Positions 1 to 16,831 of a DNA stretch of 64,000 bases are shown piece after piece. How positions within the stretch are numbered: position 1 is the stretch's first letter; every line of letters begins with the position of its first letter. The notes beneath the pieces are model-generated. The model saw nothing but the letters and a program-made list of their open reading frames with translations. It searched no databases and was not told where the DNA came from. The stretch lies in the NCBI GenBank assembly GCA_964005815.1, contig CAXFSR010000060.1:1257-65256 (forward strand). The letters run 5' to 3'. The stretch is from an uncultured Nitrospinaceae bacterium (GTDB lineage Bacteria; UBA8248). The position numbers were made by a program, and so were the translations under genes.

Positions 1-29
1 AATCTATAGAAAAACATAGAAAGTCGATC

Positions 30-1295
30 TTGAAAAATCCTGCAAAAGATGGAATGGCGATGACTTCAAAAAAAATTCTTCAAAAGATAAAAAAAAATGT
101 AACAGAAGAACTTCTATCTGAAGAAGAACAAAATTTAAGATCTGTAATTAACGCTACAGGTATCGTAATACATACAAATTTAGGCCGAGCCCCACTTAGC
201 GATTCTGCTTGTAATTCATTACTTGAAGTAGCTAAAGGATATTCAAACCTTGAATTCGATCTACATTCTGGAAAAAGAGGAAAACGTGAACATAGTATTG
301 AGTCGATTTTATGCAAACTTACCGGCTCAGAAGATGCATTAGTTGTTAACAATAATGCAGCTGCAGTTATGTTTGCACTAAAAGTTATGAGTAAAGATAA
401 AGAATCAATTGTTTCTAGAGGAGAACTAATTGAAATTGGGGGTTCTTTTAGAATTCCCGACATTATGAAAGAAAGTGGCGCAGAACTTATAGAGGTTGGC
501 ACAACTAATAAAACATATATCAAGGATTATGAAAACGCTATAAATAACAATACTGCTCTCCTATTTAAAGCACATACAAGTAATTTCTATATTTCGGGAT
601 TTACAGATACCCCCAGCAGGGAGGAATTATCAAAACTAGGAAAAGAAAAATCACTCCCAGTTCTTGAAGACTTAGGAAGTGGATCTCTTTATAAATTTTC
701 CATTCTATCTACTGAACCTACAGTCATGGATTCGATAAAATCAGGAGTTGACGTAGTCACTTTCTCAGGAGACAAACTACTAGGGGGCCCTCAAGCAGGT
801 ATTATAGTTGGTTCAAAATATTGGATTCAAAAGATGAGGAAAGACCCTATGATGCGCATGCTCAGATTAGATAAATTAGTTATTACTGCTTTGGAAAAAA
901 CTCTGTTATCATTTTTGAATCCAGAAAAGTTAACTAAGGAAATTCCTGTTTACGCAATTCTTTTCCAAGAGAAAAAAACTTTACGAAATAGAGCAAAAAA
1001 ACTTTTAAAGACTTTAGAAAAAAAACAAAAAACTAAAGCTACTTTTTCTATAGAAGAATCCATTGGTCAGGTTGGAGGGGGAACTATGCCATCTACTAAA
1101 CTAGAAAGCTATAGTTTAGTAATTCAAACAAAAAATAAAAGTCCTGATTTTTTTTCAAAATATCTTCGGAAAAGTAAAAACCCAGTAATAGCAAGAATTA
1201 AAGATAACAAGATTTACTTAGATATGCTTTGTGTGAAAGATGGAGATCTGAAATTATTACAACAAACTATAGAAGAAGCACTTTCAATGACTTAG
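30..1295 (+). CDS. selA: L-seryl-tRNA(Sec) selenium transferase (selenocysteine synthase)
   Basis: 421 aa. Shows SelA-type PLP-enzyme motifs (GKREHSIESILCKLTGSEDALVVNNNAAAVMFAL...SGDKLLGGPQAG). It is the first gene of a tightly spaced + strand operon with selB. The start is uncertain: TTG at 30, or ATG at 54 or 60. Confidence 0.85.
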   Translation: MKNPAKDGMAMTSKKILQKIKKNVTEELLSEEEQNLRSVINATGIVIHTNLGRAPLSDSACNSLLEVAKGYSNLEFDLHSGKRGKREHSIESILCKLTGSEDALVVNNNAAAVMFALKVMSKDKESIVSRGELIEIGGSFRIPDIMKESGAELIEVGTTNKTYIKDYENAINNNTALLFKAHTSNFYISGFTDTPSREELSKLGKEKSLPVLEDLGSGSLYKFSILSTEPTVMDSIKSGVDVVTFSGDKLLGGPQAGIIVGSKYWIQKMRKDPMMRMLRLDKLVITALEKTLLSFLNPEKLTKEIPVYAILFQEKKTLRNRAKKLLKTLEKKQKTKATFSIEESIGQVGGGTMPSTKLESYSLVIQTKNKSPDFFSKYLRKSKNPVIARIKDNKIYLDMLCVKDGDLKLLQQTIEEALSMT

Positions 1296-1326
1296 TTTTT
1301 TCTTGAATTAAATATAAGAGAATTTC

Positions 1327-2136
1327 ATGGCTACAGTTTTATCTCATGACGTGAAGATTGATTATGAAGTTTTAAATTCAGAAGGAAAGGGAATTCCTGT
1401 TTTTTTTATTAGCGGACTAGGAGGCGTTAGGAATTCATGGGAAAAACAATTATCTTGCTTCATGTCTCGAGGGCCTGTCATCTTACATGACCACAGGGGA
1501 ACTGGAAAAAGCGACAAACCCTCTGGAGTATATAGCATAGAAAAAATGGCCGAAGACATTATCTCTATCATGAATGAACTTTCGATAGAAAAAGCACACA
1601 TGGTGGGAACCTCTACAGGCGGTGCAATAATACAAATTTTATGTATTAAATATGGAAATAGAATCCAAAGTGGAGTTATAGCTAGTTCCTGGCCTAAGAG
1701 TGACCCTTACTTTATTCGTCAGTTTGAAGTTAGAAAGGAGATCCTCCTCAATATGGGATGGAAAACACATAATCGTCTTTCATCTTTCACTTTATATAGT
1801 CCAGAATTTTTCTCAAATAATTATGCAAAAATAGAAGAAAATGAAGAAAACCAACTCAAAAATATGCCTCCTGAAGAAATAATGGCTGAGAGAATTGACT
1901 GTATTATCAAACACGACCAATTAGAAGGATTACCAAAAATAAAAAATCCTATCCTAGTTTTAGTTGGAAGGGAAGATTTTGTTACGCCGGTATACTACTC
2001 TGAAAAAATTGCATCCTTGATCCCTAAATCTGAATTAAAGATCTTTGATAAAGGTGGGCACTTTATCTATCTGACTTATCCAAATGAGTTTAATAATACA
2101 GTTCTAGATTTTATTAATCGAAATGAAATTATCTAA
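1327..2136 (+). CDS. alpha/beta-fold hydrolase
   Basis: 269 aa. Nucleophile elbow GTSTGG (GxSxG) and a HDHRGTGKSD region. Sits between selA and selB. Confidence 0.75.
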   Translation: MATVLSHDVKIDYEVLNSEGKGIPVFFISGLGGVRNSWEKQLSCFMSRGPVILHDHRGTGKSDKPSGVYSIEKMAEDIISIMNELSIEKAHMVGTSTGGAIIQILCIKYGNRIQSGVIASSWPKSDPYFIRQFEVRKEILLNMGWKTHNRLSSFTLYSPEFFSNNYAKIEENEENQLKNMPPEEIMAERIDCIIKHDQLEGLPKIKNPILVLVGREDFVTPVYYSEKIASLIPKSELKIFDKGGHFIYLTYPNEFNNTVLDFINRNEII

Positions 2137-2156
2137 CAACTCGAGAGATCATTACT

Positions 2157-4061
2157 TTGGATAACCAAGTCATTATTGGTACAGCAGGTCATATCGACCA
2201 TGGAAAAACAACACTAGTTCGCTCACTAACAGGTACAGAAACAGATCGTTTGAAAGAGGAAAAAGAACGCGGAATAACAATAGATCTTGGTTTTGCAAAG
2301 TTTAAATTTGATGAAATTAATGCAGGTATAGTTGATGTCCCTGGTCACGAACGATTCGTAAAAAATATGCTTGCGGGTATTGGTGGTATAGATTTAGTTA
2401 TGCTGGTAATCGCCGCAGATGAAGGAGTGATGCCACAAACAAGAGAACATTTATCAATTTGTGAATTACTAGGTGTGAAAAATGGTCTTATCGTAATCAC
2501 AAAATCAGATCTTGTTGAAAATGAGTGGATTTCTTTAGTAGAGGATGATTTAAAAGAATTTGTAAAGGGAACATTTTTACACGAAAAACCCATCCTTAAA
2601 GTATCCTCTGAAACTGGAGAGGGTATCAGTCAATTGAAACAGACATTAAACAATCTAATTTCTCAAGTTAATCCTAAGGATCAGAATGGTGTTTTTCGAA
2701 TTCCAATAGATAGAGTTTTTACGATGCATGGCTTTGGAGTGGTCGTAACCGGAACGCTTTTCAGTGGAAAAATTGAAACTGGTCAGACCATTGAAATATA
2801 TCCGACTGAAAAAAAAGCAAAAATAAGAGGAATGCAGGTCCATAGTGAATCAGTAGACAAATCTACTGCAGGCTTTCGAACTGCAATCAATATACAAGGA
2901 ATTGAAAAAACTAAATTAGAAAGAGGATATGTATTAGGATTTCCTGAAGAAATGCATTCGACTTACATGCTTGATGTATCTTTAAAACTCCTTGAAAATG
3001 CATCTAATCCTCTCAAAAATCGCGCGCGTATTCGATTTCATTCTGGAACTGTCGAAGTTATGGGAAGAGTAATTATCTTAGAAAAAGACTTTGTAAGTCC
3101 AGGAGATAAAACTTTTGCACAAATTAGACTGGAAAAACCAATTACAGTTCTACCAAGAGATCGTTTTGTAATTAGGAGCTATTCACCTATGACTACTATA
3201 GGTGGTGGTGAAATTTTAGATGTAGACCCTCCAAAATTAAAAAGAATGAAAAAAGAATCTAAATCCAGATTCGAATTTTTTGAAAAAAGTTCGGATAGAG
3301 AACGATTGAAAAAAATAATTGAAGAAAATGGTATATCTGGTTCAAGTATAAAAGAACTTTCAGGAAGAGTTCCTCAAACGATTGATAAAATACGCTCATT
3401 TATTGTTGAATTAAGAGAAGCAAACGAAATATTAATTATGGATTTAGAAACCGGTCTTTCAATTGAGAAAAATGAGTTTGAAAAATTCAAAAAAGATTTA
3501 GAAAGTGAAATTGAAAATTATCACAAAAAAAACCCCCTAAAATCGAGTGCGCCCAAAGAAGAAATTAGAAGTAGATTGGGAAAAATTAATGAGAAGATTT
3601 TTTCTATGGGGTTAGAAGATTTAAAAAAAATTGGCTCTATTAGTGAGGATCAAACAACAGTTAAAATATCTTCACACTCTATAGTGCTAGATAAGGAACA
3701 GAAATTATTATCTAAAAAAATTGAGAACATTTTTTTAGATGCTAAATTTCAACCACCAACTTTTAAAACCCTACTCTCAGATGTAAAATTAACAGAAGAA
3801 AAACTTACGGAAATTATTCAGATATTGGTTACAGAAAAAAAACTTGTTATTTTAAAAGGAGATCTGATTTTTCATTCAAAATCTCTGGATAATGCTCGTT
3901 CTGAGTTAGAATCTTTTATTCGGGGAAATAACGAGATTACCGCATCTGAATTTCGTGATCTACTAGGAATTTCCAGAAAATTTGCAATACCAATACTAGA
4001 ACATTTTGACATTATGAAAATAACAGTCAGGGTGGGAGATAAACGAATAATTAAAAAATAA
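2157..4061 (+). CDS. selB: selenocysteine-specific translation elongation factor SelB
   Basis: 634 aa. N-terminal GTPase motifs [23 protein letters not shown] and TKSDL, followed by a long C-terminal winged-helix extension typical of SelB. Probable TTG start. Confidence 0.9.
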
Positions 4062-4066
4062 ACCAA

Positions 4067-5227
4067 ATGAAAAAAAAATTTCAAAAAATAAGAGAAAATA
4101 TTCCTGCTTTAAAAAGTCAAATCTATGTAAATTGGGGAGGTGCTGGTCCTTCGCCAAAATTTATAGTTGACAAGATTGCTACTTACTTGAAATGGGAATC
4201 TAAAATTGGACCATTCCATCCAAAAGTTAGAGAAGAAACATTAAAAATTAAACAAACTTTACGGAATACTGTTGCTAAAGTTTTCAAATCATCCCCAGAT
4301 GAAATTGCTATTACTGACAATACAACTTCTGGAATCAATATCGCTGCATCCGGAATTGACTGGAAAAAGTCTGATGAGGTAATAGTTGCTAATGAAGAAC
4401 ATCCAGGAGGTTTTCTCCCTTGGTTGGTTTGGGTCAAAAGAAAAAAAATTAAAGTCAAACTTCTGGATGTTGGAGAATCCGACAAACAATTAATCAATAA
4501 TCTAAATCATTTAATAACAAAATCTACAAAAGCTATATGTATAAGTCACATCTCATGGCTCTCAGGAAAGATTTTTCCTGTTCAATTAATTTCAAAGATA
4601 TGTAAAAAAAATAATATTTTGCTTATTGTAGATGGAGCACAATCTATAGGGCAAAAAGAAATTAATATTCCGAATACGGGAGCAGATATTTATACTATTT
4701 CTGGACAAAAATGGCTTATGGGACCTCAAGGAACAGGGGCACTATATATCAGGAAAAGAAAATCTAGAAACATCCTATTATCAAGAGCAGCATATGGAAC
4801 TGCAAGAATAAAAAATCTTAATAAACTATCATTCACTCCATTTTCAACAGCAAAAAAATTTGAAAGTGGAACTATGAATATGGGTCTTATTTCTGGTTTA
4901 ACAGAAAGCTTAAATCTATTCTACAAACTAGATCCATCAATAATAGAAAATCGAATCAAGACTCTGACAGAACAATTAATTGGAATGATACGAAACCGAG
5001 AAAGAATTCAATTTCTTTCCCCAACTAAGGAAATTGAATCTGGAATTGTTTCTTTTTCTATCAAAGGTATTAACTCAACTAAAATTGTGAAACTTCTTCT
5101 TAAGAAGAAAATTGTTTTACGAGAAGTCGAATCATCTCCCTCATCCGTTAGAATTTCTATTCATTACGTAAATACCGAAAAAGAAATAGAAGAAATTGCC
5201 TGTGCTATAAATGAGATCTCGCAATAA
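4067..5227 (+). CDS. class-V aminotransferase-fold PLP enzyme, SufS/CsdA-like but lacking the catalytic Cys
   Basis: 386 aa. Motif LIVDGAQSIGQ...ISGQKWLMGPQGTGALYIRK contains the PLP-binding Lys, and a FESGTMN motif follows. At the position of the SufS RAGHHCA loop this protein has REVESSPSS, so the persulfide Cys is replaced by Ser. Starts 5 nt after the selB stop. Confidence 0.7.
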   Translation: MKKKFQKIRENIPALKSQIYVNWGGAGPSPKFIVDKIATYLKWESKIGPFHPKVREETLKIKQTLRNTVAKVFKSSPDEIAITDNTTSGINIAASGIDWKKSDEVIVANEEHPGGFLPWLVWVKRKKIKVKLLDVGESDKQLINNLNHLITKSTKAICISHISWLSGKIFPVQLISKICKKNNILLIVDGAQSIGQKEINIPNTGADIYTISGQKWLMGPQGTGALYIRKRKSRNILLSRAAYGTARIKNLNKLSFTPFSTAKKFESGTMNMGLISGLTESLNLFYKLDPSIIENRIKTLTEQLIGMIRNRERIQFLSPTKEIESGIVSFSIKGINSTKIVKLLLKKKIVLREVESSPSSVRISIHYVNTEKEIEEIACAINEISQ

Positions 5228-5256
5228 AAAAAGGCGGCAAGATAAACTCACCGCCC
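5226..5256 (-). terminator. putative rho-independent terminator for the convergent gene pair
   Basis: GGCGG(5233-5237) ... CCGCC(5251-5255) hairpin. An A7 run on the + strand at 5226-5232 gives a T-run on the minus strand just after the hairpin, downstream of the minus-strand gene that ends at 5279. Confidence 0.35.
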
Positions 5257-5278
5257 TAAGTTGTCTTGGTAGTTACAA

Positions 5279-5989
5279 TCAGTTCATTTTTATAGAAAGC
5301 TCGGTTTTTCCACTGGCCTTAACGGTTACCATTTGTTCTTTTTTCCCAAGCTTCTCATGCCATACTTTAACTTTATATTTCCCAGCAGGAACATCAGATA
5401 TTTTGAATTTTCCACTATTTCCAGTTACAGTAATATAAGGATGTTTTGAAACCGCAACATATCCAACCATCCAATTATGGACATCACATGTTATTTTTAC
5501 GATTCCTGGTTTTGAAAAAAATCTCTTACTCATCTTTAATTTTTTCTTAAATTTTGGCTGTGCAATATTTGCAGTCTTATTTCCGGTTTTTCCAGGATAG
5601 GTATGAATATTGTGAAGAATTTTATCACTATTTTTAATAGTAAGTTTTCCTTTGACTTTCATTACAACTACTCTAGGCAGATAAATACACCCTTTCTGAT
5701 CTATTACAACTTTTTTCATTTTCTTGGACCACTTCTTTTTCTTTTTTATTCCTTCGATAGAAACTACTGCATACTGAACTCCACCATTTTGAACAAGAAG
5801 ACTTTGATCGTATATAGGTTTCTTTGCACATGCTTTCTTATCTTTGTTCACAGAAAGTTTCTTTGCGCTGGGAACTTTTCCATCATATTTGATTACACCA
5901 GAAACCGTACCAGCACTCACTAAGCCTACTTGTGAAACTAAGAAAATTGCCGATAATAGAAAGAAGAAACTACGAGTAAAAATGTGCAT
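5279..5989 (-). CDS. secreted cupredoxin-like (type-1 blue copper) protein with C-terminal extension
   Basis: 236 aa. N-terminal signal peptide MHIFTRSFFFLLSAIFLVSQVGLVSA. Has an HN motif (LHNIH) about 38 residues before C-D-V-H-N-W-M. Both the spacing and the C-x2-H-x2-M ligand loop match amicyanin/pseudoazurin Cu sites. About 55 additional residues follow the Cu site. Confidence 0.5.
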   Translation of the reverse strand: MHIFTRSFFFLLSAIFLVSQVGLVSAGTVSGVIKYDGKVPSAKKLSVNKDKKACAKKPIYDQSLLVQNGGVQYAVVSIEGIKKKKKWSKKMKKVVIDQKGCIYLPRVVVMKVKGKLTIKNSDKILHNIHTYPGKTGNKTANIAQPKFKKKLKMSKRFFSKPGIVKITCDVHNWMVGYVAVSKHPYITVTGNSGKFKISDVPAGKYKVKVWHEKLGKKEQMVTVKASGKTELSIKMN

Positions 5990-6149
5990 TTCCGTTACCT
6001 CTCAAATTAAAATCAAAAAAAAATAACAATTAGTATGATTCTAAACAACTTAAAAAAAGATTCAATAGTTAATGAAACATAATTCTTATTTCTATATCCT
6101 TTTATAATTTGTTATTCATAAGTAGAATACATTTAGGAAAAATAACATT

Positions 6150-6989
6150 TTGAATTATAGGGTTAAAAAAATGTCAGTAGAAAAAACAAGAATTAAAGTG
6201 CCAGAAACCTTGGAAGGTTGGGCAATTTTGCATCAAATTTACAAGGTCAAATGGGATGAATGGAAATTAAATTCCGATGTTAAAATGGTAGATTTGCTTT
6301 GCAAAACGATAGAAGGAGTTAACCAATCAGAAAATAGTCAATCTGCTGTCTTTTCAATTTTAGGACATAAAGGGGATTTACTGTTCATCCACTTTCGAAA
6401 AACACTTGATGAGTTAAATGAAATAGAAAGAACTTTTAAAAAATTAGAAATTTTTAAATATATGGAAGAAACCACCTCTTATGTTTCTTTCCTGGAACTT
6501 GGTCTTTATGAGATGACTTTAAAATTGCATAAAAAATTTGTCGACGAGGGTATCGAATATGGAACTGAAGAATGGAAAGAAAAATGGAAATTAGCTCTTG
6601 AATCAGAAAAAGAGAGAATGCTTAGTCGATTATATATGGACATCCCTGATGAAAAGTATCTTTGTTTCTATCCTATGAATAAACTAAGAGGAGAAGAGAA
6701 AAACTGGTATGCATTAGATATTCAAGAAAGACAAGCATTAATGAGAGAACACGGATTTGTTGGAAGAAAATATGCCGGAAAAGTCAAACAAATTATTACC
6801 GGTAGTATTGGTTTTGACGACTGGGAATGGGGAGTATATCTTTTCTCGCAAGATCCACTTGTTTTCAAAAAATTAATCTACGAAATGAGATTTGATGAAG
6901 CAAGTATCTGGTACGCAGAATTTGGTCCTTTTTATATAGGACTCAGAAAAAAATTAAATGAAATTCCAGGTTTTTTTAATCCTTATTAA
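6150..6989 (+). CDS. chlorite dismutase family protein (Cld/HemQ-like haem enzyme)
   Basis: 279 aa. Shows the YPMNKLRGEEKNWYALDIQERQALMREHG and FDDWEWGVYLFSQDP regions characteristic of the Cld/HemQ fold. Start is TTG at 6150 or ATG at 6171. Confidence 0.75.
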   Translation: MNYRVKKMSVEKTRIKVPETLEGWAILHQIYKVKWDEWKLNSDVKMVDLLCKTIEGVNQSENSQSAVFSILGHKGDLLFIHFRKTLDELNEIERTFKKLEIFKYMEETTSYVSFLELGLYEMTLKLHKKFVDEGIEYGTEEWKEKWKLALESEKERMLSRLYMDIPDEKYLCFYPMNKLRGEEKNWYALDIQERQALMREHGFVGRKYAGKVKQIITGSIGFDDWEWGVYLFSQDPLVFKKLIYEMRFDEASIWYAEFGPFYIGLRKKLNEIPGFFNPY

Positions 6990-6998
6990 AAAAAATTT

Positions 6999-7835
6999 AT
7001 GAAAAAAATTCTTATCGCTGGTTGTGGTTACGTAGGCAATGAACTTGGAGAGAGACTAAGCTCACAGGGACATGAAGTATGGGGTATTAAAAGAGAAATC
7101 AATTCAATTCATCCATCTATTCAATCAATTTCTGCTGACTTAAGTAAAAAAGACACTTTGCAAATTCTTCCAAAAGATATTGATTATGTTTTTTATATGC
7201 CATCTCCGAGGACAAGAAACGAAAATGTGTATAACAATGTTTTTCTTAAAGGCATCAGAAATTTAGTAGAATGTATGAAAAAAAATAAATATGAAACAAA
7301 AAAAATTTTTTTTATTTCAAGTACTTCTGTATATGGACAAAATTCTGGAGAATGGATAGATGAAAACTCTACAACAAAACCAAAATCTTCTACAGCAAAG
7401 ATAATTCTCCAAACAGAAAATTATATTCTAAAGAATTACTTAAAAACTACTATTGTAAGATTTTCTGGTATTTATGGACCTGGGCGAACAGGATTTTTAA
7501 ATAAAATGATTAATGAGGGCAAAACGTTTACCCATAATCGATATACCAATAGAATACACAGAGATGATTGTGCAAACGCACTGATTCACTTAATGAATTT
7601 ACCTAATTGTGAAAATATCTATCTCGTTTCAGACAATGAGCCAGTAGATCTTTCTGAGTTAGCAAACTGGATTAAAATAAAAAAGGGATTAAAAAATGAG
7701 GGTCTTGAATACTTAACAAAGATCCCATTTATTAAAACTAAATCAAATAAAAGATGTTCAAATAAAAAATTAATAGATTCAGGATATAAATTTTTATTTC
7801 CAAGCTTTCGCGAAGGATACAGTGGAATAATTTAG
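6999..7835 (+). CDS. NAD-dependent epimerase/dehydratase family protein
   Basis: 278 aa. Rossmann motif ILIAGCGYVGNELGERL at the N-terminus. Short-chain epimerase-like fold. Confidence 0.7.
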   Translation: MKKILIAGCGYVGNELGERLSSQGHEVWGIKREINSIHPSIQSISADLSKKDTLQILPKDIDYVFYMPSPRTRNENVYNNVFLKGIRNLVECMKKNKYETKKIFFISSTSVYGQNSGEWIDENSTTKPKSSTAKIILQTENYILKNYLKTTIVRFSGIYGPGRTGFLNKMINEGKTFTHNRYTNRIHRDDCANALIHLMNLPNCENIYLVSDNEPVDLSELANWIKIKKGLKNEGLEYLTKIPFIKTKSNKRCSNKKLIDSGYKFLFPSFREGYSGII

Positions 7836-7840
7836 TTTCT

Positions 7841-8530
7841 TTACTTATTGAAATTCAATAATATATTTATATCTTTCCTCAGTTTACGTAATTCTTCCTT
7901 GTTATTGCTCATATAATATCCACGAACTCTCAGTTCTGTATCAATTAATACAAAACGAAAACTATGCAAAATACTTATTTTTTTCTGATGACCTGGGTGA
8001 TGTGCATATGCATTTGGCAAAAAAGAAGCATTATTTAAAAATTCAAAAAAAGAAGAAATTTTTTTCTGTTTTTTATATAAAGCAATGTCTGCGCTTAATC
8101 CAAGTCCAGATTTCACTAAATTATGTATCTCTGATTTTTCTCCTGTAAGAAAAAACCATTTTTCAAAGTTTGCATTAAACCGTTTTCCATATTTTTGGAG
8201 TACACTAGAAGTATCAAATTCGGGATTAAGAGTGACAGAAAATTGTGAAAAAAGTTTTTCCTTCACAAACTCTCTTTGTAATTTTGACATTTCGGATGAT
8301 TGCAAAGGACAAGTATCATTACACCGGGTAAAGATTAAATCTCCAACCCAAATTTTTCCTTTTAAATTTTTCTCCGTAAAAACGATATTTCCCTGATCTT
8401 TTAGAGAAAACTTAGAAATGTCTTTAAAAGTCGGCAGAATATTGTTGTTCTGCTTACACCCAGTAAATAAAAATAAACATAAAAAAACGTACAAGAAAAA
8501 ATAATTGTTCTTTGTAGTACTTTTTCTCAA
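7841..8530 (-). CDS. SCO1/SenC family copper chaperone lipoprotein
   Basis: 229 aa. Lipobox LFTGC, thioredoxin-like CxxxCP motif (FTRCNDTCP) and a conserved downstream His. Confidence 0.8.
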   Translation of the reverse strand: MRKSTTKNNYFFLYVFLCLFLFTGCKQNNNILPTFKDISKFSLKDQGNIVFTEKNLKGKIWVGDLIFTRCNDTCPLQSSEMSKLQREFVKEKLFSQFSVTLNPEFDTSSVLQKYGKRFNANFEKWFFLTGEKSEIHNLVKSGLGLSADIALYKKQKKISSFFEFLNNASFLPNAYAHHPGHQKKISILHSFRFVLIDTELRVRGYYMSNNKEELRKLRKDINILLNFNK

Positions 8531-8531
8531 T

Positions 8532-9713
8532 TTAAGTGCCTTCCTTAGTATTTCTATGTCGGTGAATGTTCATTGAAACTAAAAGAGCAACGAAACACAA
8601 AAATGAGAAAAACAAAAATGTTTTCTCTACCCCATAGGCCTCGGCAACTAATCCTGCAATTAAAGGTGATAAAATAGAAGCAACTTCATTGACACTATAC
8701 AATAATCCAATAGAACTGGCTCTATTGTCCTCTTCTACCACTTTCGTAGCTACTGACAAAATAAGGCCTTGTGTAGGATTTAGGGTCCCACCAAGTAAAA
8801 TAATAAATATGAAAGTTAAAAAAATTGAAAGATTAGATGACAAAAATACTAATGAAATAGAAGCAATTATCATCATCAAAGAGAGATATAATGTTTCCCG
8901 ATCTCCTTCTGCAATCTTCCCCCAAAAAATGGAGCTGAGAGTTCCTACTAAAAAATAGAGTGTTAGAATCCACCCTATAGACGTGACATTAAAACCAAGA
9001 CTTTCTGCAATCCAGATAGGCAAAAATGTCATAATTCCTCTAAGACCCATCACTCGACAACTTGATAATAAAAGAATGAACATTAATATTTTATTATGAA
9101 ATAATTGAGAAAATGTTCTCTTTACCTCATTTTTTAATTCTTTCTTCTCTCTAGAAAAATCGGTAAAACTAAACCAAATAACTAAGGAAAATATAACTCC
9201 CGGAAGAACAAAAAACTGAACTGCGGTTCTCCAATCACCAAAGTAATATGTTAACCAACCAACTAGAACAGGAGTAAAAATACTGCCAAAATCTCCTCCA
9301 GCCTTAAAAATACTCATATGAAAAGAAAGTTTTTTTGTCGCTTCCCTTGCAAGTAACGCTACTGCAGGAGGATGGTAAGCAGAACTACCAATTCCACTAA
9401 GAAAAACCAAAAAAAGCAAAACGAAAAACGATTCAAGAAAACCAAAGAAAATTAAGGGTATTGCGCTAATGACAAGCGATAGGCATAAAATAAGCCTATG
9501 CCTGTTTAAGTAATCTGCAAAAAAAGATATAGGAAATTGAAAGATGCCACACGCAAATGAATAAGTAGATACAATTAATCCAGTTTCAAAATAACTCAAT
9601 TTGAAATCAAGTAGTATAAGAGGCAAAACCGGAGTCAGAACCCTAGCATAGACTGAATTGACGGCATGACTACCCGACAATAAAAAAACACTTTTAAGAT
9701 TAGGAGATTCCAT
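8532..9713 (-). CDS. MFS transporter
   Basis: About 12 TM helices. The tracked ORF 8532-9854 is extended at its N-terminus by reading through the reverse complement of tRNA-Phe (VAQSVEQRTENPRVGGSIPPRG). The real start is taken as the ATG at 9711-9713 (MESPNLKS...). Confidence 0.75.
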   Translation of the reverse strand: MESPNLKSVFLLSGSHAVNSVYARVLTPVLPLILLDFKLSYFETGLIVSTYSFACGIFQFPISFFADYLNRHRLILCLSLVISAIPLIFFGFLESFFVLLFLVFLSGIGSSAYHPPAVALLAREATKKLSFHMSIFKAGGDFGSIFTPVLVGWLTYYFGDWRTAVQFFVLPGVIFSLVIWFSFTDFSREKKELKNEVKRTFSQLFHNKILMFILLLSSCRVMGLRGIMTFLPIWIAESLGFNVTSIGWILTLYFLVGTLSSIFWGKIAEGDRETLYLSLMMIIASISLVFLSSNLSIFLTFIFIILLGGTLNPTQGLILSVATKVVEEDNRASSIGLLYSVNEVASILSPLIAGLVAEAYGVEKTFLFFSFLCFVALLVSMNIHRHRNTKEGT

Positions 9714-9772
9714 AATATTGAATTTTCTGGCAGAGAAAACGGACTTCTTTAAATCAATTTTAAAGTAAAAAA

Positions 9773-9848
<76 letters not shown>

Positions 9849-9898
9849 ACACAAAAACTTTTCTAAATCATCAAAAAAGATTTGTATTCAAGAAAATA

Positions 9899-9927
9899 AT
9901 TCTAGGTGCATCAAAAAATAGCGTCAA
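9899..9927 (-). promoter_or_regulatory. putative sigma70-type promoter for tRNA-Phe
   Basis: On the minus strand: TTGACG (complement of 9922-9927), a 17-nt spacer, then TAGAAT (complement of 9899-9904). This lies about 45 nt upstream of the tRNA 5' end. Confidence 0.35.
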
Positions 9928-10039
9928 GCGCAGTCAAAATTAAAGTATTTAAAAATTAACATTGCAAATAATACTTGTTTCAATCAAATTATGAAATTAG
10001 TTTCGTGCAAAATATTTAACCATAAGAAAGAGGAATTTT

Positions 10040-11050
10040 TTGAATAAAGAAATACTACCGTTAGGAAAAATAGAACATGATCTATTAAGAGAATTTTTAG
10101 ATGACCTTGAAGGTGACCCTCGTCTAATAGTAGGACCAAAAGTTGGAGAAGATGCTGCTGTAATCGATTTTGGGGATAAATATCTTGTAGCAAAATCAGA
10201 TCCAATTACATTCACGGAAGAAAAAATAGGATGGTATGCAGTTCATATTAATGCCAATGATATCGCTTGTATGGGAGCTGAACCTAAATGGTTTCTCATT
10301 ACTCTTTTAATGCCAGATGGTAAAACTTATAAATCTTCAATAAAAAAAATATTCAAAGATATTAAAAGAGCCTGTAAAGAACTAGGTGTAATCTTATGTG
10401 GTGGTCACACTGAGATAACAAAAGGTTTAGAACGGCCTATTTTGTGTGGCCAGATGCTTGGTGAAGTTAAAAAAAATAATCTCATACAGGGATCTAAATC
10501 TAAGAAAGGTGATTCCATATTAATGACCCAAAAAATTCCTATAGAAGGAACTGCAATTTTAGCAAATCATAAAAATAAAGAATTACTTAATACAATAGAT
10601 AACAAATTACTTAAAAAAGCTCAGAGATTTTTAGAAAAACCTGGAATCAGTGTGGTAAAAGCAGCTATTACCGCAGCAAAAACTGGTCATATACATTCTA
10701 TGCATGATCCTACAGAAGGTGGACTAGCAACAGGAATCCATGAACTTGCTCTTGCTTCAAATTTAGGAGCTTTAGTCAATTACGAATTAATTCCAATGTA
10801 TAAAGAGGGAATGGAAATTTGCAAAACATTCAATCTCGATCCGCTGGGCCTCATTACATCTGGAACTCTACTTATAACTACAAGTGAGGATAATGAAAAA
10901 AAGATTATAAAAAAATTAAAAAAAATAGAGATAGAGACAACTAAAATTGGTAAATTGGTTGATAAAAATCTTGGTGTGAAAATAAAAATAGGAAAAAAGA
11001 CTAGTGATTTACCCATTTTTCAAATGGATGAAATCTCAAAAGTTATTTAA
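10040..11050 (+). CDS. AIR synthase-related protein (PurM superfamily; HypE/ThiL/SelD-like fold)
   Basis: 336 aa. VGEDAAVIDFGDKYLVAKSDP and HINANDIACMGAEP N-domain motifs, plus MHDPTEGGLATG in the C-domain. Lacks both the SelD GCGCK motif and the HypE C-terminal Cys. TTG start with an AAGAGGA RBS. Confidence 0.6.
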   Translation: MNKEILPLGKIEHDLLREFLDDLEGDPRLIVGPKVGEDAAVIDFGDKYLVAKSDPITFTEEKIGWYAVHINANDIACMGAEPKWFLITLLMPDGKTYKSSIKKIFKDIKRACKELGVILCGGHTEITKGLERPILCGQMLGEVKKNNLIQGSKSKKGDSILMTQKIPIEGTAILANHKNKELLNTIDNKLLKKAQRFLEKPGISVVKAAITAAKTGHIHSMHDPTEGGLATGIHELALASNLGALVNYELIPMYKEGMEICKTFNLDPLGLITSGTLLITTSEDNEKKIIKKLKKIEIETTKIGKLVDKNLGVKIKIGKKTSDLPIFQMDEISKVI

Positions 11051-11072
11051 AAATAAGGTATGGAGAAATAAA

Positions 11073-11645
11073 GTGAAAGTTGGTGTATTACTCGATTTTG
11101 ATGGAACTATAACAAAACCTGTTTTTAACTGGCCGGCAATGAAAAGAGAAATGAATCTTACAAATGCAGATTTATCTATTCTCGATTATATCTCAACTGT
11201 AGATCCTGAAGACGCTGCAAAGATAGAAGCAATTCTCGAACGTTACGAAATAGAAGCCGCTCTTAAAGCTGAATTAAACGAAGGCGCTAAAGATTTAATT
11301 AATTTTTTAAGAGAAAAAAAAATCCCACATGCGATTGTTACTAATAATGCAAAAAGACATATTCTTAAAATGTTGGAAATTTTAGATCTTAGTTTTGAGA
11401 AAATAATAACCAGAGATATTGGATTTTGGAAACCAGATCCAAGGCAAGTTGTTGCGGGTGCACAGATAATTCAAACACCGCCAGATCGATGTCTTTTTAT
11501 AGGCGATGGACAATACGACATGCATGCAGCAACTGAAGCAGGGATGATTGCAATACATCTTTCAAAATCTAAAACACTTGAGTGTGACTATCAAATTACA
11601 AGCCTTAACGACGCAATCCCAATAATTTCTAGTTTTTATAAATAA
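11073..11645 (+). CDS. HAD-superfamily hydrolase
   Basis: DxDGT motif (VLLDFDGTIT). Likely GTG start at 11073 preceded by a GGAG RBS. The tracked ORF begins earlier, at 11004. Confidence 0.7.
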   Translation: MKVGVLLDFDGTITKPVFNWPAMKREMNLTNADLSILDYISTVDPEDAAKIEAILERYEIEAALKAELNEGAKDLINFLREKKIPHAIVTNNAKRHILKMLEILDLSFEKIITRDIGFWKPDPRQVVAGAQIIQTPPDRCLFIGDGQYDMHAATEAGMIAIHLSKSKTLECDYQITSLNDAIPIISSFYK

Positions 11646-11654
11646 ATTTTAGAT

Positions 11655-13160
11655 TTAAAATAAACTTGAAGCGGAAAGTTTTGTGATATCAATAAAACTA
11701 TCTGGGAAAAGACCAAGATAAAGGGTCATAGACAATAGAATGACCAAAGTAAAGATTAATGAGGAAGCACGGGAGAATTCAAAAGGAATGTCTGGGTCCT
11801 TTGCAGGTTCCATAAACATCACCATAATAACTCGTCCATAATAATACATAGAAATCGCACTTGTAAGTATCCCGATAACAGCCAACCAATAGAATTCATT
11901 TTGTATTGCCGCTGCGAAGAGATATAACTTTCCTACAAAACCTGCAGTTGGAGGTATCCCAGCCAATGAAAGAAGAAAAACCACGAAACACATACCGAAC
12001 CAAGGATGGGACTGACCTAATCCACGCCAATCTTCAATCTGATCTCCTCTTTTGCCTTCTTGGCACATCCATATCAGCATTCCAAAAGCACCTAAATTTG
12101 TAAACAAATATATACCTAAATAAAACAGTACTGAACTTACATTAAAATCACTAAAAAGATATTTCCCATTATGAATTGTGAAACATGAAACAAAACCCAT
12201 CAAAATATAACCGGCATGACTCATACTTGAATACGCAAGCATACGTTTTAGATTCTTCTGTGCAATTGCAGCAATATTACCCCAAACCATTGTCGCAGCA
12301 GTTAAAGCCCAAAAGAGAACAGTCCATCTTGTACTCATAGAAGGCAAGGCTATGACAAAAAGTCGGACTATAACTGCCACAGCTGCTGCCTTCACTGCAA
12401 CAGACATAAATGCAGTTACAGATGTTGGAGCGCCTGTATATGCATCTGGTAGCCACATATGAAAAGGAGCTAGCGCCATTTTAAAAGCAAAACCGCCAAC
12501 TAATAATATAACTGACAAAATTAAAACTGGCTGAGATACTACTGCATTTACATTAGAACTAGAAAGAGCCTTAGCGATAGCAGTAAATGATGTTGAACCG
12601 GTGTAGCCGTAGAGTAATGCGATACCATACAACAAAATTCCAGACGCAAAAGCACCCATCAAAAAATATTTAAATCCTGCTTCTCTACTTAATACATCAT
12701 TTCTCATAAATGCAACTAAAACATAAATACTTATACTCATAGTTTCTATACCAAGATATAGAGTCATTAGATCATTAGCTGAAACTAAAACTAGCATCCC
12801 AAAAACGGAAAACAAAAGCATGGCATAAAATTCACCATAATTAATTTTTTCAACTTTCAGATAATCAATCGACATTAAAACTGTAAGAGCAGCACAAACT
12901 AAAATAGTAGATTTTAAGAAAACACTAAAATTATCAACTATATAAAAATCACTAAAGGTAGTTTTTGGCCCAACACCCCACTGAGATAAAGTAAAATAAA
13001 GGACTATAATTATTCCAATTAAACTAACTAAACCAACTAGAGATTTCTTCTCTAATGAAACAAATAGATCAAAAATAAGAACAAATCCTATAAGAATAGC
13101 AAGACTAATCTCAGGCAAGGCCAGTGAAAATAATATGTCTGGTATAACTACTTGCTGCAT
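11655..13160 (-). CDS. nuoN: NADH-quinone oxidoreductase subunit N (copy 1)
   Basis: 501 aa polytopic antiporter-like subunit with NuoN-type motifs. Last gene of the downstream nuo operon. Confidence 0.9.
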   Translation of the reverse strand: MQQVVIPDILFSLALPEISLAILIGFVLIFDLFVSLEKKSLVGLVSLIGIIIVLYFTLSQWGVGPKTTFSDFYIVDNFSVFLKSTILVCAALTVLMSIDYLKVEKINYGEFYAMLLFSVFGMLVLVSANDLMTLYLGIETMSISIYVLVAFMRNDVLSREAGFKYFLMGAFASGILLYGIALLYGYTGSTSFTAIAKALSSSNVNAVVSQPVLILSVILLVGGFAFKMALAPFHMWLPDAYTGAPTSVTAFMSVAVKAAAVAVIVRLFVIALPSMSTRWTVLFWALTAATMVWGNIAAIAQKNLKRMLAYSSMSHAGYILMGFVSCFTIHNGKYLFSDFNVSSVLFYLGIYLFTNLGAFGMLIWMCQEGKRGDQIEDWRGLGQSHPWFGMCFVVFLLSLAGIPPTAGFVGKLYLFAAAIQNEFYWLAVIGILTSAISMYYYGRVIMVMFMEPAKDPDIPFEFSRASSLIFTLVILLSMTLYLGLFPDSFIDITKLSASSLF

Positions 13161-13189
13161 GATATTTAAGACTCCTATGGACTAAAATC

Positions 13190-14749
13190 TTAGTTTTTAG
13201 CAGAAACCTTTGAAATACGTTTTTGGATAATTGCAACGTTTTTACTCGTTTGATTCTGATCCACAATTTTCACAACTCTTTTAAGACTAGCCTCCATTTT
13301 ATTTATAAAAGGTTTAGGATAGAGACCAATCCAAAACATTAAAATAACTAAAGGAGCTAGATAAAGAATCTCTCTTAAATTACAATCTGGGATATTTTCA
13401 TTTTTTGGATTTTCCAATTTCCCAAAAAATACTCTTTGAAATAACCAAAGCATATAAGCAGCACCAAGAACAATTCCAATCACAGCAAATGCCGCGTAAA
13501 TATAACTTTTCTTAAATGCACCAATAAGGATTAAAAACTCACCTACAAATCCATTTAACCCAGGTAGCCCTATACTACTTAACATAGTTATTGCAAAAAT
13601 TACGGTAAAAATTGGCATTTGCTTTGAGAGTCCGCCATATTCGGAAATTTCGCGTGTATGTCTTCTTTCATAAACAACTCCGACAAGTAAAAAGAGTGCG
13701 CCGGTACTAATACCATGATTTATCATTTGTAATTGACCACCTATTAGCCCCTGTTCATTTAACGCAAAAACTCCCAGCATAACAAATCCTAGATGACTGA
13801 CTGATGAGTAAGCTACAAGCTTTTTAATGTCAGTTTGAGCCATCGCGACCAATGCTCCATATATAATTCCGATGATAGACAGAAGTACCATAAAAGGCAC
13901 AAAAAGTTGCGTCGCCTCTGGAAGAAGAGGCAATACAAATCGAACAAAACCATATGTACCCATTTTCAATAGAATTCCAGCAAGAATTACACTACCGGCA
14001 GTCGGTGCCTCTACGTGCGCGTCAGGCAACCATGTATGAAAAGGAAACATTGGAACTTTGATAGCAAAACCAATGAAAAAGGCAAGGAAAATCCATACCT
14101 GTAAACTTAGTGGAATCTTTGGTCCCACAAGATACAATTCGGTTAGACTAAAAGTTAAAGAACCGGTTCCTGACTTCATATTAAAGAAATATAAAGCAAG
14201 GATTCCTAGAAGCATTAAAACACTTCCGAAAAGCGTATAAAGAAAGAATTTTATTGCAGCATAGAGTTTTCTGGTTCCACCCCAAATACCAATCAAGAAA
14301 TACATCGGTACTAATGTAACTTCGAAGAAAACGTAAAACAGAAAGATATCAATTGCTAGAAATGTTCCAAGCATACCTGTTCCTAGCAAAAGCAAACAAA
14401 CATAATATTCTTTTTCACGTTCTTTAATAGCAGTAAAAGAACAAACAATAGAAATTAACATTGTTAACGTTGTTAGAAGAATCAAAAGTACACTAATCCC
14501 ATCTACTCCAAGATAATAACTGACACCAATTGATGGTATCCAGCTGACTTTTTCAACAAATTGAAATCCTGCCTCAGAGTCATTGAAGTTCGTCCATAAA
14601 GGAAGAGATATAAGAAAATCGAGAAATGCAACACCAGTAGCAAACATCTTGATTGTTTTCACTTGCTCTTTTTTTATAAAGAGCATAATAATAATTGCTC
14701 CCAGCAAAGGAAGAAAAATTATCAGCGAAAGAAGTGGAAGATTATTCAT
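13190..14749 (-). CDS. nuoM: NADH-quinone oxidoreductase subunit M (copy 1)
   Basis: 519 aa. WLPDAHVEAPTAGSVILAG motif typical of NuoM. Confidence 0.9.
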   Translation of the reverse strand: MNNLPLLSLIIFLPLLGAIIIMLFIKKEQVKTIKMFATGVAFLDFLISLPLWTNFNDSEAGFQFVEKVSWIPSIGVSYYLGVDGISVLLILLTTLTMLISIVCSFTAIKEREKEYYVCLLLLGTGMLGTFLAIDIFLFYVFFEVTLVPMYFLIGIWGGTRKLYAAIKFFLYTLFGSVLMLLGILALYFFNMKSGTGSLTFSLTELYLVGPKIPLSLQVWIFLAFFIGFAIKVPMFPFHTWLPDAHVEAPTAGSVILAGILLKMGTYGFVRFVLPLLPEATQLFVPFMVLLSIIGIIYGALVAMAQTDIKKLVAYSSVSHLGFVMLGVFALNEQGLIGGQLQMINHGISTGALFLLVGVVYERRHTREISEYGGLSKQMPIFTVIFAITMLSSIGLPGLNGFVGEFLILIGAFKKSYIYAAFAVIGIVLGAAYMLWLFQRVFFGKLENPKNENIPDCNLREILYLAPLVILMFWIGLYPKPFINKMEASLKRVVKIVDQNQTSKNVAIIQKRISKVSAKN

Positions 14750-14773
14750 AATATCTTAGACCCCCAAAACCTA

Positions 14774-16831
14774 CTATTGTAAAAGATAAGCACTTAACAT
14801 TAAGAAAACACCTAAAAGCATTGCAAGCAAATAATTCTGAACCATTCCAGATTGTAAAAATTTAAAAACTTGACTAAAGAAACGAACAAAGTTCGCTACA
14901 CCGTTCACTGCACCATCAACTGTCCTTATATCAAAAAGGGAAGACACTCGACTCGTTAAAACCGTTACAAATGTACTTCCATTTACAGCACCATCAACAA
15001 CTTTAGCATCAAAATTCCACAAAAAACGCATCAATCTATAAATTGGCTCTACAATACATTTTTGATATAACTCGTCTACATAATACTTATTCAGTAAAAT
15101 TTTATATAAACCTGGGAACTTTTGTTGTATTTGATCAGGCATGTTTGATTTTTTCCCATACATACTCCAAGCAATCACAATACCTCCAACAGCTATTATT
15201 ATAGCAAGTATAATTAAGTACATAGCTTCTGGTCCATGATGACCTCCGCTTTCTCCAGAAGCCGCATGAGCGGAAGAAATCAAATTAAAAGAAGAATGAT
15301 GAGTCACATGAGACATTTTAGCGAGAGAAGGAGCTAGAAAATCATGAATCCACCCTTTTTCTGGTGGAAACCCGGGAATAATTCCTCCAAAAATACTCAA
15401 AACTGCAAGTAAAATCAATGGTATTGTCATTGCGGGGGGAGATTCATGAATATGTTCCCTAGCATGAGTGTCTACTCTCATTTCTCCATGAAAAGTCATA
15501 AAAATCAGCCTAAACATATAAAAAGCAGTCATTAATGCTGCTATAGAACCAACTATCCATACAAAAGTATGTCCAGAGAAAAAAGCATTAGCCAAAATTT
15601 CATCTTTACTCCAAAATCCTGCAAAAGGCGGAACGCCTGCTATTGCTATCGCACCGATTAGAAAAGTCCAATATGTTATTGGCATCTTAGATTTAAGACC
15701 ACCCATATATCTCATGTCTTGCTGTTGCTCTTCGGGAGCATGATGTAAAGCATGAATTACACTTCCACTTCCAAGAAACAAAAGACCTTTAAAAAATGCA
15801 TGAGTCATAAGATGGAAAACACCTGCAGTAAATGCCCCAACCCCAAGCGCCATAAACATAAAACCTAATTGACTAACAGTACTATAAGCAAGCACACGTT
15901 TAATATCATTTTGCACGAGACCTATAGATGCTGCAAAAATTGCTGTAAGTGCTCCTACAACAGCAATAACTTCTAAAGCCAAAGCTGCATCAACATATAT
16001 AGGACTGGTTCTCGCAACCATATAAACGCCAGCCGTTACCATTGTAGCCGCATGAATTAGAGCACTAACGGGAGTAGGTCCTTCCATAGCATCAGGCAGC
16101 CAAACATAGAGAGGGATTTGAGCACTTTTTCCCATCGCACCAATAAAAAGCAGAAGTCCAATAATAGAAGCATAAGTAGTTTCAACACCAAGAACATTGA
16201 TATTTACGGCAAATTTCGATGTTGATTGCGACACTTCTTGGTAAGTGAGAGTATCTGCTAACATCCATATCAAAAACATTCCTAGTAAAAATCCAGCGTC
16301 TCCAATTCTGTTTACAATAAAGGCTTTTTTCCCTGCATCAGAAGCAGATTTTTTTTCATACCAAAAACCAATAAGCAAATAACTACATAAACCAACACCT
16401 TCCCATCCAACAAACATTACCAAATAGTTATCGCCAAGTACGAGGAGAAACATAGAAAGCATGAATAAATTGAGATATGTGAAAAATCTAGAGAATCCGG
16501 GATCCCCATGCATATATCCAATTGAATAAAGATGAACCAAAAATCCAACTCCAGAAACAACTAAAAGCATAATTGTACTTAATGGATCTATAAGAAAACT
16601 TAGCGAAACACTAAAACTTCCTGCGTGAATCCATTCCCAGAGATGAACGGTATGTTTTCCACCAGCACCAAAAATCATTTCATTCGCAATGAAAATTACA
16701 ACCAACAGAGACAATCCTGCCATTAAAGTTGCTATATAACCGGATTTCTCCCCTAATCGTTTTCCAAAAATTCCATTAATTAGAACACCTACAACAGGGA
16801 AAAAAGGAATTAACCATGCATTTAAAATCAT
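14774..16831 (-). CDS. nuoL: NADH-quinone oxidoreductase subunit L (copy 1)
   Basis: 685 aa. WLPDAMEGPTPVSALIHAATMVTAG motif and the long C-terminal horizontal helix region. Confidence 0.9.
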   Translation of the reverse strand: MILNAWLIPFFPVVGVLINGIFGKRLGEKSGYIATLMAGLSLLVVIFIANEMIFGAGGKHTVHLWEWIHAGSFSVSLSFLIDPLSTIMLLVVSGVGFLVHLYSIGYMHGDPGFSRFFTYLNLFMLSMFLLVLGDNYLVMFVGWEGVGLCSYLLIGFWYEKKSASDAGKKAFIVNRIGDAGFLLGMFLIWMLADTLTYQEVSQSTSKFAVNINVLGVETTYASIIGLLLFIGAMGKSAQIPLYVWLPDAMEGPTPVSALIHAATMVTAGVYMVARTSPIYVDAALALEVIAVVGALTAIFAASIGLVQNDIKRVLAYSTVSQLGFMFMALGVGAFTAGVFHLMTHAFFKGLLFLGSGSVIHALHHAPEEQQQDMRYMGGLKSKMPITYWTFLIGAIAIAGVPPFAGFWSKDEILANAFFSGHTFVWIVGSIAALMTAFYMFRLIFMTFHGEMRVDTHAREHIHESPPAMTIPLILLAVLSIFGGIIPGFPPEKGWIHDFLAPSLAKMSHVTHHSSFNLISSAHAASGESGGHHGPEAMYLIILAIIIAVGGIVIAWSMYGKKSNMPDQIQQKFPGLYKILLNKYYVDELYQKCIVEPIYRLMRFLWNFDAKVVDGAVNGSTFVTVLTSRVSSLFDIRTVDGAVNGVANFVRFFSQVFKFLQSGMVQNYLLAMLLGVFLMLSAYLLQ

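Follow-up and report, generated by a model that had tools for sequence, protein, structure and literature searches.

A stretch of 64,000 nucleotides from an uncultured Nitrospinaceae bacterium (GTDB lineage Bacteria; UBA8248), corresponding to positions 1,257 to 65,256 of the forward strand of contig CAXFSR010000060.1 (assembly GCA_964005815.1) and referred to below as the window, opens with a selenocysteine (Sec) gene cluster in which selA and selB are accompanied by two further genes, coding for an alpha/beta hydrolase and for a class-V pyridoxal phosphate (PLP) enzyme. Together, in the order selA-hydrolase-selB-PLP enzyme, they form a self-contained four-gene operon, restricted to one Nitrospinota/UBA8248 clade. 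Judged by its sequence, the PLP enzyme, called the lyase in the following, is a member of the already-described Cys-less branch typified by C-DES, and not a degenerate desulfurase. The components (selA, selB, C-DES-type lyases and esterase-like hydrolases) are all known, and it is their combination that is a lineage-specific variant; no description of this four-gene combination was found in the literature searched. The features of the operon are the following.

1..1295, + strand: selA, L-seryl-tRNA(Sec) selenium transferase, 5'-truncated (TIGR00474, 551.6 bits, model positions 50-454 only)
1327..2136, + strand: alpha/beta-fold serine hydrolase, esterase/RutD-like, 269 amino acids (Abhydrolase_1, E 1.8e-27)
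2157..4061, + strand: selB, selenocysteine-specific elongation factor, 634 amino acids, TTG start (TIGR00475, 402.3 bits, cut-off 242.25)
4067..5227, + strand: C-DES-type Cys-less class-V PLP enzyme, 386 amino acids, probable C-S/C-Se beta-lyase (Aminotran_5, E 4.4e-63)
5231..5257, no strand assigned: GC-rich hairpin with an 11-bp stem, a consensus match between the stop codon of the lyase gene (5227) and that of a convergent gene (5279..5989, - strand)

The four open reading frames (ORFs), listed at 30..1295, 1327..2136, 2157..4061 and 4067..5227, all lie on the + strand and follow each other head-to-tail, with intergenic gaps of 31 nt (selA/hydrolase), 20 nt (hydrolase/selB) and 5 nt (selB/lyase gene). 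Coordinates and gaps agree with the original prediction, made from the window alone, which had described four closely spaced + strand genes. The hairpin at 5231..5257 likely marks the end of the transcription unit. A terminator-like site was called at this position on the - strand, in the interval that separates the stop codons of the two convergent genes. The hairpin counts as a consensus match only; such sites are no more numerous in this region than expected from shuffling. In relatives, the operon lies between a divergent gene on its upstream side and a convergent one on the other; the upstream context was taken from loci L003, L078 and L080.

The selA gene continues beyond the 5' limit of the window. 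The TTG listed as its start (position 30), taken as the beginning of the feature in the original prediction, is an internal Leu codon, and the listed start a window-edge artefact, because the frame is open from base 3 of the window, with no in-frame stop in bases 3..29, the model match begins only at position 50, and the orthologues are longer. The SelA orthologue of L003, with 91% identity where the two sequences overlap, is a full-length protein of 474 amino acids, and the codons located 5' of position 30 in the window correspond to its residues ...AIEKYRKSILKN...; the other orthologues range between 475 and 480 amino acids. On these grounds, about 53 N-terminal codons lie outside the window, together with model positions 1-49, the region of the N-terminal tRNA(Sec)-binding extension. 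Even in its truncated form, SelA passes the equivalog cut-off (551.6 bits against 267.9) and matches the Pfam SelA family (PF03841) with an E-value of 4.3e-149. SelB contains the complete EF-Tu-like, beta-barrel and winged-helix architecture (Pfam domains GTP_EFTU, GTP_EFTU_D2, Beta-barrel_SelB, SelB-wing_2 and SelB-wing_3). The two genes are thus assigned, from these matches, as a canonical selenocysteine synthase and a canonical Sec-specific elongation factor. The order selA-selB on one strand, with both genes above their equivalog cut-offs, is that of canonical bacterial selAB(C) operons; the operon of the window differs from them by the hydrolase gene between selA and selB, by the lyase gene after selB, and by the absence of an adjacent selC.

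The lyase had been described in the original prediction as a SufS/CsdA-like protein in which the catalytic Cys is replaced by Ser. The motifs reported there (IVDGAQSIGQ, SGQKW and REVESSPSS) are all present in the 386-residue protein, but the family assignment does not hold, since C-DES is nearest both by sequence and by fold, and the SufS and CsdA cut-offs are missed by a wide interval. The protein reaches no NCBIfam equivalog cut-off: it scores 168.4 against 475.1 bits for the SufS subfamily (TIGR01979), 118.1 against 607 for CsdA (PRK10874) and 97.7 against 661 for SufS (PRK09295). The models for Sec lyases give a similar picture, with 154.8 against 377 for TIGR01977 and 104.6 against 525 for SclA (NF040779). 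Among sequences of known structure, the best match by phmmer is C-DES (1elq/1n2t, E 1e-37, 133 bits), SufS-type enzymes reaching at most 113 bits. Several members of the lyase family carry the JGI label 'L-cysteine/cystine lyase'.

The key residues of the lyase are the PLP Lys215, His112 (within EHPG), Asp189 and Gln192 (within VDGAQS), Arg352 and Arg362, the last two on a short loop spanning residues 349-368. H112, D189, Q192, K215, R352 and R362, which include the Schiff-base Lys, the PLP-stacking His and the carboxylate-binding Arg residues, are invariant in 33 family members. In the alignment to SufS (6wci), the segment VESS..P........SSVRISIHY of the lyase lies opposite SGQHCAHPLLQYFGVAATCRASLAFY, and the second Ser of VESS falls opposite the Cys of the SufS GQHCAHP loop. 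To this extent, the Ser noted in the original prediction is indeed found at the catalytic position. It is not, however, a point substitution: the loop measures 20 residues in every sel-linked member and 19 in C-DES, against 30 in SufS, so that about 10 residues are missing, and the residue opposite the SufS Cys varies between Ser, Thr and Ala across the family. Because this Ser is not conserved, its role as a replacement nucleophile was rejected. No sel-linked sequence covering that region has a Cys at the catalytic-loop column, in agreement with the lack of an active-site Cys originally noted. The lyase combines complete PLP- and alpha-carboxylate-binding machinery with the loss of the mobile Cys loop and, the loop being missing, cannot form an enzyme persulfide or perselenide.

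A different Cys of the lyase, Cys158 (4538..4540), is located two residues before a conserved Ser-His, on the strand leading to the PLP site. It is present in 30 of the 33 family members, the remainder having Ser, and corresponds to Ile in C-DES.

Two signatures are common to the lyase and C-DES and are not found in SufS: E-H-P-G at the PLP-stacking His, where SufS has E-H-H-A-N, and an additional Trp following the Schiff-base Lys (GQKW or GHKW versus GHK-). The similarity extends to the three-dimensional level. An AlphaFold (AF2) model of the lyase, built from the family alignment, reached a predicted local distance difference test score (pLDDT) of 90.8 and a predicted template modelling score (pTM) of 0.90. 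When it was compared with the PDB by using Foldseek, C-DES gave the best reciprocal template modelling (TM) scores (0.88-0.89/0.89, root-mean-square deviation 2.3-2.4 A); SufS structures followed close behind, with TM of about 0.87 and target-normalised TM of 0.81-0.84. C-DES of Synechocystis (1ELQ, 1ELU, 1N2T, 1N31) thus shares with the lyase the class-V PLP fold, EHPG, Lys-Trp, both Arg residues and the short loop devoid of Cys. The two differ in that identity in the structural alignment is about 26%, that a Gln precedes the PLP Lys in the lyase and a His in C-DES, and that the lyase gene sits in a selAB operon and its product occupies a sub-branch of its own among the Cys-less enzymes. This last point derives from a neighbour-joining tree, rooted on a single SufS outgroup and constructed without bootstrap, in which C-DES nests within the wider family of Cys-less enzymes and the sel-linked lyases group in a single clade.

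C-DES belongs to a distinct class with no conserved active-site Cys, which yields pyruvate, ammonia and a product persulfide, instead of alanine and an enzyme persulfide (PMC8300815). YcfC, a second C-DES-like enzyme, is also a Cys-independent C-S lyase (PMC12494993). Because both have been described as such, the apparent 'Cys-less SufS-like' protein represents a known kind of enzyme.

These features bear on the possibility, in essence the one raised in the original prediction, that the lyase works by the NifS-type mechanism, releasing Se(0) or selenide from a ketimine and leaving alanine, with the reactive selenol making an active-site Cys unnecessary. Mihara and colleagues are said to have found in 2000 that Cys-to-Ala mutants of E. 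coli NifS homologues retain Sec-lyase activity. The group II enzymes SufS, CsdB and CsdA, which deliver selenium from Sec (PMC9312934), have the same fold and PLP-binding residues as the lyase, and it has been argued that the protonation state of the Cys, and its role, are less critical with Sec than with Cys as the substrate (PMC3266904). On the other hand, human SCL is considered to depend critically on its Cys (PMC6770646). The RxGHHCA Cys loop of the group II enzymes has been lost in the lyase by the 10-residue deletion, and where their EHHAN motif has a His that flanks the PLP-stacking one, with a proposed action on the Cys, the lyase has Pro. Above all, the derived features of the lyase (loop deletion, EHPG and Lys-Trp) are those of C-DES, whose products are pyruvate and ammonia (PMC8300815). 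Because these features belong to a beta-eliminating branch, a NifS-type mechanism is regarded as improbable.

A reaction of another class, by which the protein would act as aminotransferase, epimerase or C-S lyase on a metabolite devoid of selenium, with the hydrolase in the same pathway, seems more improbable still. Class-V enzymes without the Cys loop, such as EgtE/Egt2 and PvdN, do occur among the weaker matches (isopenicillin-N epimerase being a further example of such chemistry), and the protein reaches no NCBIfam equivalog cut-off, which also speaks for this reading. Scores for EgtE (69 bits) and PvdN (97 bits) are, however, far below those for C-DES and SufS, and the operon contains no other biosynthetic genes.

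In order to evaluate the conservation of the operon, species-representative genomes were scanned with the lyase family, which produced 77 loci, and the four proteins of the window were mapped on them by tblastn. The complete order selA-hydrolase-selB-lyase, on one strand, was found in 29 species-level Nitrospinota/UBA8248 loci, and selB followed by the lyase gene on 4 short contigs; together with two loci devoid of the hydrolase gene, considered below, selB is directly followed by the lyase gene in 35 genomes. Gaps in the conserved operons are mostly of 80 nt or less. The GC content of these loci lies between 0.32 and 0.72, and the identity of their proteins to those of the window decreases to about 43-55%. 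Synteny is thus conserved; its absence would, according to the original prediction, have indicated chance adjacency.

Few loci depart from this arrangement. In L011 only 527 nt are available upstream of the lyase gene and no selB is found there; because its lyase nests among the linked ones in the tree, an assembly break or a local rearrangement is likely. In L032, selA-selB and the lyase gene are separated by about 2.2 kb of small ORFs, and the contig of L044 is too short for judging the operon. L079 is a second assembly of the L078 region, in which selB is split in two ORFs and the HemQ gene is shortened (8067..9977 and 13570..14163); both probably reflect indel errors of long-read sequencing and not real differences.

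The metagenomic matches listed for SelB served as a negative control: 80 selB loci of other lineages, whose SelB proteins are 38-48% identical. Within these matches, the hydrolase was found in none of the 80 loci, and no class-V enzyme adjoined selB in any of them, a single weak match being located about 5 kb downstream. The operon, conserved in one clade and not seen among the 80 listed control loci, is therefore a lineage-specific variant, and the two extra genes, already regarded as atypical in the original prediction, are confirmed to be so: neither adjoins selB in the listed controls.

The reading that we favour, although we hold it with somewhat less than even confidence, is that the lyase is a beta-eliminating C-Se/C-S lyase, which salvages or detoxifies free selenocyst(e)ine; its basis is the operon context. 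Like C-DES, the enzyme would form an external aldimine with a cyst(e)ine-type amino acid, and alpha,beta-elimination would then free the chalcogen leaving group and an aminoacrylate, decaying to pyruvate and ammonia. Its physiological substrate may be free selenocysteine, selenocystine or a selenium conjugate; a selenium compound is proposed because the lyase gene is presumably co-transcribed with selA and selB. In this way, SelD could be supplied with selenide or perselenide recovered from degraded selenoproteins, and/or the cell could dispose of free Sec, which is toxic. Gene identities, loop architecture, fold, the conservation of the operon and its restriction to one lineage are established by the comparisons above; both the beta-elimination chemistry and the selenium substrate are what we infer from homology and context, respectively. 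The hydrolase, as a serine esterase-type enzyme recruited to the operon, may handle an ester or an enamine by-product. Its possible roles, on aminoacrylate/enamine by-products or on an ester such as an aminoacyl-tRNA, are speculation and make up the weakest part of the proposal.

A class-V precedent for selenium delivery is offered by PF00266-family genes adjoining selD, which include the characterised Sec lyase SclA (PMC2276186, PMC5029168, bioRxiv 10.1101/2020.02.07.939272). SclA and the EF_2568-type proteins of TIGR01977 are likewise class-V PLP enzymes linked by neighbourhood to selenium genes (PMC2276186; bioRxiv 10.1101/2020.02.07.939272). They are, however, encoded next to selD, whereas the lyase of the window is encoded next to selA and selB, belongs to another subfamily and has no Cys at the position of the desulfurase loop.

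Other observations weigh against a selenium-specific role. The sequence does not separate sulfur from selenium substrates, and for the whole sel-linked clade the lyase function is itself a prediction. Paralogues and sister-clade lyases (36-40% identity), as well as homologues from other phyla, are not located next to sel genes, so that a link to selenium is not general in the family. Two loci, L006 and L008, contain selA-selB-lyase without the hydrolase gene. By tblastn, with an approximate E. coli SelD as the query, selD, whose product is the presumed acceptor of the selenium, was found in none of the 77 genome loci at a distance of up to 10 kb from the operon. Hydrolase homologues from outside sel contexts are 46-54% identical to the protein of the window, close to the 55-60% of operon-encoded orthologues from distant Nitrospinota. 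Synteny between distant members also continues beyond the operon, with a CoA-transferase and an OB-fold protein gene upstream, and genes for a CarboxypepD_reg-like protein, HemQ, an epimerase and SCO1 downstream. Since the flanks are syntenic as well, gene order alone over-states the selection acting on the operon.

Several of these observations would be accounted for if the two extra genes were hitch-hikers, co-transcribed with selAB by historical accident and having no selenium-specific role. The lyase would in that case be an ordinary cystine/cysteine C-S lyase, active in the mobilisation of sulfur or the catabolism of cysteine, as has been proposed for C-DES, and the hydrolase a general esterase. 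The wider lyase family, including C-DES, consists of sulfur enzymes not linked to sel genes elsewhere; the entire neighbourhood of about 12 kb is syntenic; the hydrolase is dispensable in the operon and occurs in other places; and neither selD nor selC was found nearby. What this explanation leaves unaccounted for is the tight same-strand packing, kept in 35 genomes across GC contents of 0.32-0.72 and protein identities of about 45-50%, the grouping of the sel-linked lyases in one clade, apart from the unlinked paralogues, and the persistence of the lyase gene next to selB in the two loci where the hydrolase has been lost. Such an accident, the main alternative, is considered unlikely, while deserving serious attention. 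The selenocyst(e)ine lyase is preferred, in spite of the points listed.

A stronger version of the preferred reading is that the lyase, possibly together with the hydrolase, constitutes a dedicated Sec/selenocystine recycling module based on beta-elimination instead of NifS chemistry, recruited to selAB in a lineage whose selenoproteomes are among the largest known in bacteria. Such a module would be the first dedicated counterpart of animal SCLY in prokaryotes, and would differ from it in mechanism. This version is doubtful, and we rate it below the general one. According to a recent review, bacteria and archaea lack specific Sec lyases, which occur mainly in animals (PMC9312934). The nature of the lyase therefore matters for selenium recycling and the handling of free Sec in selenoprotein-rich bacteria, for which the operon supplies a clonable candidate Cys-less C-S/C-Se lyase. 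If the selenium link is true, selenium could be mobilised by simple beta-elimination with no enzyme perselenide; if it is false, the locus is a lineage-specific operon quirk, holding an ordinary cystine lyase.

The sister clade of the lyase, which is not sel-linked, contains tandem duplicates in some genomes, as in L039 (8664..11119) and L083 (8608..11323). The duplicates of L083 are located near polyphosphate-metabolism genes (PPK, Ppx-GppA and CHAD).

The catalytic triad of the hydrolase is intact, with the nucleophile in G-T-S-T-G, the Asp in GREDF and the His in GGHF, as established by alignment with Est1 (6eb3). The alpha/beta-hydrolase fold, a size of about 268 amino acids and the Ser-Asp-His triad are common to this protein, RutD and the metagenomic esterases Est1 and Est816. 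In the PDB, esterases rank first (Est1 6eb3 and 8v16, E 7e-29; 104 bits), whereas RutD 3v48 is weaker (3.6e-20; 75 bits). RutD (TIGR03611), a putative aminoacrylate hydrolase, is the best NCBIfam model, and many family members have been named 'aminoacrylate hydrolase' by JGI. An assignment as RutD orthologue was nevertheless rejected: the score of 162.9 bits is under the cut-off of 238.5, esterases are closer, and no rut genes are found nearby.

Homologues from outside sel contexts occur in diverse surroundings. One of them, in OZ245330.1, the source chromosome of L006, whose sel operon is devoid of the hydrolase gene, adjoins genes for a RidA-family protein and an M20 peptidase; a second is found near a serine-acetyltransferase-like gene and a PALP gene, and a third amid TctC and ABC-transporter genes. 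Because equally similar homologues occur in such unrelated contexts, the hydrolase family appears to be a general one, and its place in the operon a local recruitment. The homologue on the L006 chromosome is 53% identical and is arranged in tandem with a second alpha/beta hydrolase (L084, 6001..7747).

The original prediction had also stated that selD and the gene for tRNA-Sec (selC) are not contained in the window, and the searches by ARAGORN, Rfam and tblastn agree with it. No tRNA-Sec was detected in the 64 kb by ARAGORN or Rfam (gathering threshold, E<=1), the only tRNA gene found being tRNA-Phe (9773..9848, - strand), and none was detected by ARAGORN in 31 related loci. A crude scan of the 64 kb for single in-frame TGA codons produced no convincing selenoprotein gene. 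Three UBA8248 'Nitrospinota' metagenome-assembled genomes are among the ten bacteria with most selenoprotein genes, FO_M_Nitrospinota_01 having 54 of them (PMC13326102). This genome corresponds to locus L005, where the operon is present, and the lineage context is thus in keeping with the proposed role of the lyase in selenium metabolism.

The sole tblastn match to the SelD query in the window, with orthologues in L001-L003 and L008, was the following ORF.

10040..11050, + strand: AIRS/AIRS_C-family protein, 336 amino acids (bits against cut-off: HypE 116.8/251.6, ThiL 101.3/184, SelD 86.5/125)

It was rejected as selD, since its TIGR00476 score is below the cut-off, HypE scores higher, and its N-terminus reads LPLGK where SelD has G-C/U-G-C-K, with neither Cys nor Sec. 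The ORF is overlapped by a HAD-IA phosphatase gene (11004..11645, + strand). The pair, next to tRNA-Phe and nuo genes, is also found in L001-L003, L008 and L080.

Downstream of the operon, the window contains the following genes.

5279..5989, - strand: CarboxypepD_reg-like protein, first gene of a block syntenic with L078 and L080
6150..6989: HemQ/coproheme decarboxylase (PRK12276, 297 bits)
6999..7835: NAD-dependent epimerase-family protein
7841..8530, - strand: ORF with no NCBIfam match, at the position of the SCO1/SenC gene of L078 and L080

The block 5279..8530 as a whole is syntenic with L078 and L080, whose lyases share only about 47% identity with that of the window; regional synteny is therefore unusually stable in this lineage. 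The next ORF, coding for an MFS-type transporter (8532..9854, - strand), runs over the tRNA-Phe gene, and its first 25 residues or so (MCATVAQSVEQRTENPRVGGSIPPRG) are translated tRNA. The true start of the transporter is probably the Met that opens MESPNLKSV, some 46 codons farther into the ORF. Three consecutive Proton_antipo_M-type genes (11655..16831, - strand) belong to a NADH:quinone oxidoreductase (nuoN/M/L-like) operon of ordinary arrangement.

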